A DNA stretch of 42,539 bases, from IMG/VR virus record IMGVR_UViG_3300035210_000132, positions 156,596 through 199,134 of that record; one strand, 5' to 3'. Of this stretch, positions 29,998 to 41,734 are shown piece by piece. Every line of letters starts with the position of its first letter. Position 1 is the first letter of the stretch. Both the position numbers and the translations under genes were made by a program. Below the pieces are notes generated by a model that ran no database searches, had not been told where the DNA came from, and worked only from the letters and a program-made list of their open reading frames with translations. The stretch comes from a virus.

Positions 29998-30285
29998 TCA
30001 GACAGCGTAAGGGCCGTACGGAGAGGCTTGTTCCTGGGCTACGACAGAGGGCACATAGTTCAGGGCAGCTGCTCGGTCACGCTCTCTCTGAGTCTGATGG
30101 ATACTCTTCACCTGGTTCCCTACGAAACCTGCCGTTCCTCCGATGGCTGCTCCCGCACCAGTACCGATGACCTTCCCTGCCACTGAGTTAGGAGCCGCAA
30201 GGAAACCCCCTACGGCTCCTACGGTACCGGCAAGTGCGATCTTGGTGAGCTCGTCACGGAAGCCTTGGATCATGGCCAAGCGCAT
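29998..30285 (-). CDS. Small Gly-zipper membrane protein (95 aa), last gene of the RNAP-led operon. Holin-like or pore-forming candidate.
   Basis: IALAGTVGAVGGFLAAPNSVAGKVIGTGAGAAIGGTAGFVG read directly (repeated GxxxG/A), with a charged C-terminus. Confidence 0.45.
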   Translation of the reverse strand: MRLAMIQGFRDELTKIALAGTVGAVGGFLAAPNSVAGKVIGTGAGAAIGGTAGFVGNQVKSIHQTQRERDRAAALNYVPSVVAQEQASPYGPYAV

Positions 30286-30683
30286 CAGCTGATCCTTTTG
30301 TCTAGGGCGTCGAATACCTGGATCACGAGAGGGTCTGCCATCGGGTTACCGGCGTAGCCGATCACCTTGACTGCCCAGGAGTTGAGCTCCTCAGCGAACG
30401 CAGCTTGGATCCGATCCTCGAGCTTGAAGACTTCCAGGAAGGCTGCAGCTAGCTTCTCCTCGAAGTGTAAAATCTCTGTCTCAAGGAAGAAGTGATAGAT
30501 GTAGTCATCCCCTCGCTGGGCTACTTCGGCCACATACATCTTCCGGTCGGTACGGTAGAACTCCAAGGGAGCGAATGGAGTCGGTGGCGCCAGCTTGACC
30601 ACTTCATCGGATACATTAGGACGGGTCTTCGCCCCTGCCTCAACCCGAGCCATCCAGTCCTGGTACGCGTTGGTCTCGATCAT
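30285..30683 (-). CDS. Hypothetical protein (132 aa).
   Basis: Complete ORF, 4-nt overlap with the upstream gene. Confidence 0.5.
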   Translation of the reverse strand: MIETNAYQDWMARVEAGAKTRPNVSDEVVKLAPPTPFAPLEFYRTDRKMYVAEVAQRGDDYIYHFFLETEILHFEEKLAAAFLEVFKLEDRIQAAFAEELNSWAVKVIGYAGNPMADPLVIQVFDALDKRIS

Positions 30684-41400: not shown

Positions 41401-41734
41401 CGACCTGCTTCTCCGTGCCATTGACGATGTAGCTGTAGCGCTGAGTGGGCTTGGGCAAGGTGAAGAGCTTGATCTTCTGCCTATCGATCTCCTTTCCTGT
41501 CTCTTTATCAACAAGCCCCACCTCACCATAGACCGTTGCCCCCCAAGTGCGGCCAAGGGCCTTGGCTTCTTCTTGTGACTTGAGATCGGCAGTTACTGCG
41601 CCCTTCTCATCAAAAGAAATATCGTGAAGGACAAGAGAGTTTTTACGACCCTCGATAGGAAAGTTCTCCTTGATGCCCGCGCTGACGCGAGTGCGGAGAT
41701 CTTCCCAGGTTTTGTCAATTAGACTTAAAGCCAC
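35417..41734 (-). CDS. rpoBC: Single-chain multisubunit-type RNA polymerase (2105 aa): bacterial beta homolog (residues ~1-1000) fused in-frame to a beta-prime homolog (~1001-2105). The beta-prime N-terminal zinc-finger region is absent.
   Basis: Beta motifs read directly: [45 protein letters not shown] (GRHGNKG at 39317-39337), [28 protein letters not shown]...[20 protein letters not shown]. Beta-prime motifs: [104 protein letters not shown] (NADFDGD at 37481-37501), and the C-terminal Zn site CGTTQG...[13 protein letters not shown]. GTG start with AGGAG 7 nt upstream. Confidence 0.93.
   Translation of the reverse strand: [2105 protein letters not shown]

Follow-up and report, generated by a model that had tools for sequence, protein, structure and literature searches.

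Phages of the phiKZ type have contractile tails. As summarised in reviews, they package multisubunit RNA polymerases (RNAPs) and inject them together with a protease and a helicase, and their early transcription is insensitive to rifampicin. Enzymes of the phiKZ/AR9 type consist of 4-5 highly diverged polypeptides, and phiKZ-type phages possess two polymerase sets, one in the virion and one outside it, and encode no sigma factors. Here we analyse an RNAP gene in a stretch of phage DNA of 42,539 nucleotides (positions 156,596 to 199,134 of the IMG/VR virus record IMGVR_UViG_3300035210_000132), hereafter called the window. This 42.5-kb window is our view of a genome of about 199 kb, that of an uncultured, contractile-tailed phage from a large clade with a bacterial-type beta/beta' RNAP. 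Different from the phiKZ/AR9-type enzymes, its polymerase is fused and closer to bacterial RNAP, and the region holds one fused gene rather than two sets. An earlier note on this DNA had regarded a packaged beta/beta' enzyme in a contractile-tailed phage as a combination not seen before; this has to be given up, since phiKZ-type phages are contractile-tailed and already package polymerases of the beta/beta' type.

N4, the crAss-like phages and the Thermus phage P23-45 also have the polymerase gene among structural genes and deliver the protein from the particle, as we propose here; the N4 virion polymerase, however, is T7-like, the enzymes of crAss-like phages and of P23-45 are highly diverged two-barrel polymerases, and the particles are those of podoviruses or siphoviruses. 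A deep beta/beta' clade named mReC, comprising 97 metagenomic tailed-phage contigs, some of more than 200 kb, has been described by Weinheimer and Aylward (2020, PMC7481178). Cellular profiles recognise the beta and beta' sequences of mReC, and it is by this description, which the window fits, that the two were compared. Their paper is on phylogeny and does not discuss packaging, operon structure or spike linkage.

The nearest isolates are the Salmonella myovirus Arash (OQ632216) and the Vibrio phages D69, D148 and D181, with genomes of about 180-187 kb and bacterial-type RNAPs that are 30-32% identical to that of the window over 71-95% of the query. Their capsid, sheath, baseplate and terminase proteins are likewise homologous to those of the window, and their RNAP genes are placed just behind the portal gene and ahead of gp218-like and gp219-like genes. 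In Arash and the Vibrio D phages the polymerase is split by inserted genes into a beta plus beta'N and a beta'C piece, whereas it is one chain in the window. The gene order in Arash is portal, gp205, RNAP ... beta'C, SNF2 helicase, gp218, gp219, and the Arash spike gene gp238, which is followed by a PAAR gene, lies about 30 kb away from the RNAP genes, whereas the spike gene of the window is the next gene after RNAP. A tblastn search found a single polymerase set in Arash, in its two pieces, and a single one in D69, and both phages carry annotated sigma factors. The phage of the window fits among the RNAP-encoding tailed phages that have been known since 2020, and the idea of a packaged polymerase was already raised for Arash in 2023. 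The literature searched contains no description of the clade-wide order portal, RNAP, spike and gp218-like gene, and none of a fused single-chain polymerase gene coupled directly to the gene of the central spike.

The polymerase operon and its conservation

The minus strand of the window carries seven co-directional genes between positions 29998 and 41734, as established from the open reading frame (ORF) listing and a read-out of the junctions. The RNAP gene (gene 1, 35417-41734; 2105 amino acids, GTG start with AGGAG 7 nucleotides upstream) is followed by the spike gene (gene 2, 34289-35413; 374 amino acids), a gene for a homologue of Arash gp218 (gene 3, 32082-34292; 736 amino acids), a C39 peptidase gene (gene 4, 31546-32079; 177 amino acids) and three unnamed genes, of which the first encodes a gp219 homologue (gene 5, 30680-31549, 289 amino acids; gene 6, 30285-30683, 132 amino acids; gene 7, 29998-30285, 95 amino acids). 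Read from the RNAP end, the junctions measure +3, -4, +2, -4, -4 and -1 nucleotides, spacings which hold only if the start of gene 5 is the ATG at 31549, with its strong AGGAGG site, rather than the GTG at 31582 that comes first in the frame. This agrees with the seven-gene operon headed by RNAP, with gaps of -4 to +3 nucleotides, that the earlier note had claimed. Promoter-like matches inside the operon are weak and as frequent as expected (7 found versus 6.5), and terminator-like matches are weak too; none of either kind lies at a gene junction. The RNAP gene is preceded by a divergent intergenic region of 206 nucleotides, the far edge of which is formed by a small acidic ORF in the opposite direction, and since this region contains a promoter-like site RNAP is the first gene of the operon. 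At the other end, 7 nucleotides past the stop codon of gene 7, there is a terminator-like hairpin on the same strand (29969-29991; AGAAAGACC-AGGGC-GGTCTTTCT followed by CTTCTTC). As judged from the sequence, the RNAP gene is coupled, probably translationally, to the gene of the central spike and to the gp218-like gene.

How general this layout is was assessed by running family profiles over 80 IMG/VR loci and four other contigs. The RNAP of the window has more than 100 homologues with 43-71% identity, most of them of about 2100 amino acids and many on contigs of 180-220 kb; the contig of the window itself measures 199,134 bp. An alignment-based search retrieved 442 relatives from IMG/VR, whereas a single-sequence scan of the same database gave no match. 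Relatives at the DNA level were not found among deposited phages, and a scan of a genome collection returned only mis-binned contigs of metagenome-assembled genomes from unrelated phyla, so that the host is not indicated. The spike family is present in 79 other loci, always as the next conserved gene after RNAP and in 60 of them at a distance of no more than 19 nucleotides or overlapping it; in some of the others the gap is occupied by a small glycine-rich ORF (about 10 loci) or by an endonuclease-like ORF or a large insert (three loci). The families of the 736-amino acid protein (76 loci), of the protein of about 290 amino acids (69 loci) and of the 132-amino acid protein (63 loci) follow in the same order. 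The C39 peptidase, found in only 7 loci, is a predicted accessory gene of the cluster. On the other side, a homologue of the Arash portal precedes RNAP on its strand in 72 of 72 loci, in 24 of them within 600 nucleotides; in the phage studied here its position would be beyond the right-hand end of the window.

The order portal ... RNAP, spike, gp218-like protein and proteins of about 290 and 150 amino acids is thus kept in about 80 loci across RNAP identities of 38-69%, and its recurrence in so many independent metagenomic loci means that the arrangement is not due to chance. The predicted ancestral order is portal, (small gene), RNAP, spike, gp218-like and gp219-like gene. The placement of RNAP with structural rather than replication or early genes, as claimed for the window, is borne out by the portal upstream and by the spike and gp218-like genes downstream, and the RNAP-spike layout is far more general than the observation in a single window had implied. 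Downstream of RNAP, the cluster of 15 loci (L004 21247-22704, L011 18460-20721, L018 20842-22299 and 12 others) additionally contains a homologue of the Arash SNF2 helicase gp217, an optional gene that the window does not have. There is a parallel to this in phiKZ-type phages, in which a SNF2 helicase is genetically linked to the genes of RNAP.

The promoter-like site upstream of RNAP (TTGACT-N18-TACTCT, 41831-41860, minus strand) lies about 97 nucleotides 5' of the start codon. Its elements, GTTGAC and TAC(C/T)CT separated by 17-18 nucleotides, are kept in the aligned upstream regions of 8 relatives, and the motif TTGAC-N17/18-TACYCT has one match in the whole window, as compared to 0.14 expected, so that no other operon of the window has one. 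Across the fetched loci it is found almost exclusively upstream of RNAP, in 16 of 82 loci that belong mostly to the sub-clade of the window, in which inserted genes separate the portal gene from RNAP. The -35 element is, by its sequence, canonical for sigma70-type holoenzymes, and the RNAP operon of this sub-clade appears to have acquired or kept a promoter-like site of its own. The site might be read by the host enzyme in the early phase of infection, or else by the phage enzyme together with a phage sigma factor. With a sigma70-like promoter of its own the operon need not be late, and coupling to the spike gene alone does not show late expression. No sigma factor gene was found in the window or near RNAP in its relatives. 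Between the promoter-like site and the start codon the leader can be folded into a two-helix hairpin (41780-41815, minus strand), for which RNAalifold on 7 relatives gives 10 base pairs, with compensatory changes in 7. Conservation extends to the internal loop GAGAC(C)/(A/G)TA, and the hairpin matches no Rfam family.

Predicted properties of the encoded proteins

The single ORF of the RNAP gene contains, among others, the Pfam domains Rpb2_6 (2e-62), Rpb1_2 (3e-26) and Rpb1_5 (1e-21). When the family profile is aligned to RpoB and RpoC of Salmonella, beta falls at about residues 20-1006 and beta' at about residues 1023-2081, with a linker of about 16 residues between them. The NADFDGD catalytic loop (residues 1411-1423) is invariant among 11 aligned family members, and the GDK..GRHGNKG motif of beta, the bridge helix, the trigger loop and the second zinc site are kept in comparison with beta and beta' of Salmonella and E. 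coli. In the alignment the N-terminal zinc-binding domain of beta' (C70, C72, C85, C88) is deleted from the enzyme of the window, which also lacks the SI3 insertion. Identity to bacterial RpoB/RpoC is about 28%. The gene would accordingly encode a single beta-beta' chain of 2105 amino acids and 235 kDa with an intact predicted active site; genes for alpha or omega subunits were not found within the window. Many homologues elsewhere contain LAGLIDADG or Hint domains and reach 2450-3367 amino acids, whereas the RNAP of the window has neither. The rifampicin pocket of beta, to which the earlier note had drawn attention, is altered (Q513R, D516E, H526N, R529V, S531T, P564 lost, I572T), with six resistance positions substituted. 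From this the enzyme is predicted to be insensitive to the drug, which says nothing, however, on who transcribes the early genes.

The product of gene 2 is predicted to be a central spike of the gpV/gp138/VgrG type with an N-terminal OB-fold followed by a beta-helix. A monomer model made by AlphaFold from 36 homologues has a pLDDT, the confidence score of the program, of 69, which rises to 85-91 in the beta-helix part. In a Foldseek comparison of this model with the PDB the top 33 matches are without exception to central spikes from contractile systems, nearly all at a probability of 0.96-1.0, and comprise those of the contractile injection systems AlgoCIS and Anabaena CIS, phi92 gp138, VgrG, R2 pyocin, P2 gpV, phiKZ and Mu. 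Profile searches gave weak matches to gp5/VgrG beta-helices in the PDB and to baseplate hub proteins in PHROG. The gene call of the JGI is 63 residues shorter, the extra N-terminus being nonetheless conserved at the protein level. A tblastn search with the spike against deposited phages had no match, and its comparison with the Arash spike gp238 by hhalign was not significant; hints at 4e-4 from hidden Markov model (HMM) and phmmer searches are not relied on here.

The 736-amino acid product of gene 3 is a full-length homologue of Arash gp218 and of Vibrio D69_0266 (hhalign 95.3%, E 2e-8, 543 columns), and its structure model, although confident (pLDDT 80.5), has no relative among solved structures. 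Gene 4 matches Pfam Peptidase_C39 at 1.3e-13 over profile positions 5-121, with the candidate catalytic residues Cys33 (TCSAAC), His117 (GHYVV) and Asp133 (MDPN) read from the sequence. The succession of a gpV-like spike, a 736-amino acid protein and a C39 peptidase after RNAP, as read earlier from the letters, is thus in line with the ORF list, the fold search and Pfam. The family HMM of gene 5 matches Arash gp219 at 6e-11, a protein that is not in the Arash particle list. Gene 5 was also considered as a sigma factor or a small terminase subunit, and both assignments were rejected for lack of similarity to Pfam, PDB or Arash sigma factor entries. The family of gene 6, where found, always follows the gene of about 290 amino acids. 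Gene 7 encodes a glycine-rich protein of 95 amino acids with the N-terminal motif GFRDELTKIA, which also opens the small ORFs that lie between RNAP and spike in other relatives.

Many proteins of the clade that are not related in other respects carry this motif, a-F-x-D-E-L-x-K-I-A, near the N-terminus, in the first 10-35 residues. The corresponding regular expression has 91 matches, 43 of which fall in the first 45 residues versus 19 expected. In the window it is carried on the minus strand by gene 7 (29998-30285), by an ORF at 16552-16818 and, in the version HLSELEKIA, by the C39 peptidase (31546-32079); in related loci by L011 18460-20721, L004 19988-21250, L018 19549-20382, L003 3013-3570 and about 30 others. 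Its carriers include small glycine-rich proteins, C39 peptidases, the SNF2 helicase homologous to gp217 and a gene of about 190 amino acids just upstream of the portal gene. The motif may be a particle-targeting, propeptide or docking signal. It is absent from Arash and D69 and also from the RNAP, the spike and the 736-amino acid protein.

Proposed packaging of the polymerase

Is the polymerase, then, a component of the particle? The evidence that bears most directly on this question comes from Arash, the particles of which were purified on a sucrose gradient and pelleted before their proteome was recorded as spectra and unique peptides. The RNAP protein gp206 gave 3516 spectra and 128 unique peptides, in both respects the most of any protein, and the beta'C piece gp216 was the fifth most detected (1210 spectra, 40 unique peptides). 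The SNF2 helicase gp217 (1148 spectra, 38 unique peptides) and gp218 (1149 spectra, 36 unique peptides) were abundant too; the figures are 877 and 32 for the portal and 1333 and 30 for the capsid protein, and the annotated sigma factor gp10 was also detected. The authors suggest a role of the particle RNAP in early transcription but also offer contamination as a reading.

Together with the conserved gene order, the strand shared with the structural genes, the intact catalytic elements and the substituted rifampicin pocket, these data lead us to favour, with moderate confidence, the reading that the polymerase is packaged into the particle and injected. In this scheme the operon would be expressed together with the structural genes and the polymerase would be loaded into the particle alongside the gp218-like protein, in some relatives also with the SNF2 helicase or the C39 peptidase. 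Leaving the particle through the contractile tail along with the DNA, it would then start phage transcription without the rifampicin-sensitive enzyme of the host, probably working with phage sigma-like factors such as those annotated in Arash and D69. Later transcription would be left to copies of this enzyme synthesised in the infected cell, a step suggested by the single polymerase set of Arash and D69. Of the case that the earlier note had made for a virion polymerase, the placement in a structural module holds, the novelty of the combination does not.

Several points weigh against packaging. The particle data come from Arash alone and not from the phage of the window or its sub-clade, and the Arash list comprises 116 of 252 proteins and includes primase, ligase and ribonucleotide reductase with hundreds of spectra, so that carry-over of abundant cytoplasmic proteins is real. 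The N-terminal F-x-DEL-x-KIA motif, a mark of many other proteins in the module, is missing from the RNAP. The sigma70-like promoter is unique to the RNAP operon in the window and could be read early by the host enzyme. Finally, the window covers 42.5 kb of a genome of about 199 kb, and a second polymerase or a sigma factor is possible elsewhere.

The contamination of the Arash list by replication enzymes, the missing motif and the promoter kept in the sub-clade of the window are at the same time what speaks for the most serious alternative, which we consider possible yet clearly less probable than packaging. According to this explanation the polymerase is not packaged: host RNAP with sigma70 would read the promoter early and the phage enzyme would then run middle and late transcription, following the logic of T7, the adjacency to the spike gene being a legacy of gene order. 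Against it stands the order portal, RNAP, spike and gp218-like gene, which is kept however far the RNAPs have diverged within the 38-69% range of identity. The promoter was not found in 66 of the 82 loci, and in 24 loci RNAP lies within 600 nucleotides of a portal gene on the same strand. It would also be odd for an early enzyme to be co-translated with the spike, and the RNAP tops the Arash list in both spectra and unique peptides.

Alternatively, the polymerase might be packaged not inside the head but as a spike-associated cargo of the tail or baseplate, and enter the cell first. There is a precedent for a tail-located virion polymerase in P23-45, in which the enzyme is reported to be fused to the tape measure protein. 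That the RNAP stop and the spike start are 3 nucleotides apart or overlap in most relatives would fit such a role as well. A small ORF nevertheless parts the two genes in about 10 relatives and an endonuclease-like ORF or a large insert in three, and the spike gene of Arash is remote from its RNAP genes. Moreover, a folded chain of 235 kDa is too big for the lumen of a tail tube. We therefore regard tail cargo as improbable. That the region is not of phage origin at all but a bacterial or plasmid polymerase locus beside a tailocin or other contractile injection system can practically be dismissed: spike and sheath proteins are known from tailocins and type VI secretion-like systems too, but the window has a large terminase, a tail sheath and a capsid protein homologous to that of Arash (6e-31), a portal homologue precedes RNAP in all 72 related loci mentioned above, the contigs stand alone at 176-220 kb, and the RNAP has diverged from bacterial RpoB/RpoC to about 28% identity.

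A more far-reaching version of the packaging proposal would be that the single 235-kDa chain is the only polymerase of these phages, that it is delivered from the particle via the contractile tail as part of a conserved RNAP/spike/gp218-like cargo module, that the co-delivered SNF2 helicase, C39 peptidase and glycine-rich proteins are addressed to the particle by the F-x-D-E-L-x-K-I-A signal, and that transcription as a whole is independent of the host enzyme and relies on a polymerase of still bacterial appearance. In this full form we think the proposal rather unlikely. If the polymerase is packaged, a widespread clade would have a second route to host-independent transcription, separate from that of phiKZ and with a polymerase that is much closer to the bacterial enzyme and fused in one chain. 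This raises the questions of how so large a chain is loaded and ejected, what replaces the alpha subunit and which sigma-like factor is used, questions that can now be tested with Arash and the Vibrio D phages, which are in culture. If it is not packaged, the conserved order of portal, RNAP and spike still wants explaining.

Other genes of the window

Every structural gene identified in the window, those of terminase, capsid, sheath and baseplate, lies on the strand of RNAP. Genes for RNase HII, a PRA-PH pyrophosphohydrolase and an NT5C nucleotidase form a block on the opposite strand between the terminase gene and the operon. The large terminase gene (24670-27564, minus strand) encodes 964 amino acids as compared to about 615 in relatives; it contains a LAGLIDADG domain at residues 667-728, and the insertion is very likely an intein. 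The product of the capsid gene (13242-14357, minus strand; 371 amino acids) matches the Arash capsid protein gp226, and downstream of the gene, at about 13150-13185, there is a strong terminator-like hairpin. An ORF of 585 amino acids on the plus strand (13125-14882) was rejected as spurious, the true capsid gene being on the minus strand there.

The contractile tail, which the earlier note had read from a sheath-like ORF, is supported by matches of that ORF (2463-6167, minus strand; 1234 amino acids) to the PHROG tail sheath (1.3e-12) and to Arash gp236 (1e-35). This is an exceptional length for a sheath protein: the sheath profile covers no more than about the last 200 residues, the match to the 706-amino acid gp236 is confined to residues 772-1234, and about 770 extra residues precede this part at the N-terminus. 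Homologues of the Arash baseplate-region proteins gp233, gp234 and gp237 are encoded on the minus strand of the window too. An exact 12-mer, TTTTAGCTCTCA, occurs twice on the minus strand (2441-2452 and 11752-11763) in short intergenic regions upstream of structural genes and is a possible late promoter or processing signal; when 2 mismatches are tolerated, it is no more frequent in the window than expected by chance.

Finally, the minus-strand gene at 17818-21159 encodes a large protein of 1113 amino acids that shares homology at its N-terminus with gp222, a virion protein of Arash (7e-42), and has an inorganic pyrophosphatase (InPase)-like domain at residues 708-833. Domains of this kind are seen in large phage proteins that are internal or ejected, those of the DarB type among them, and the protein is a further candidate for an injected enzyme.

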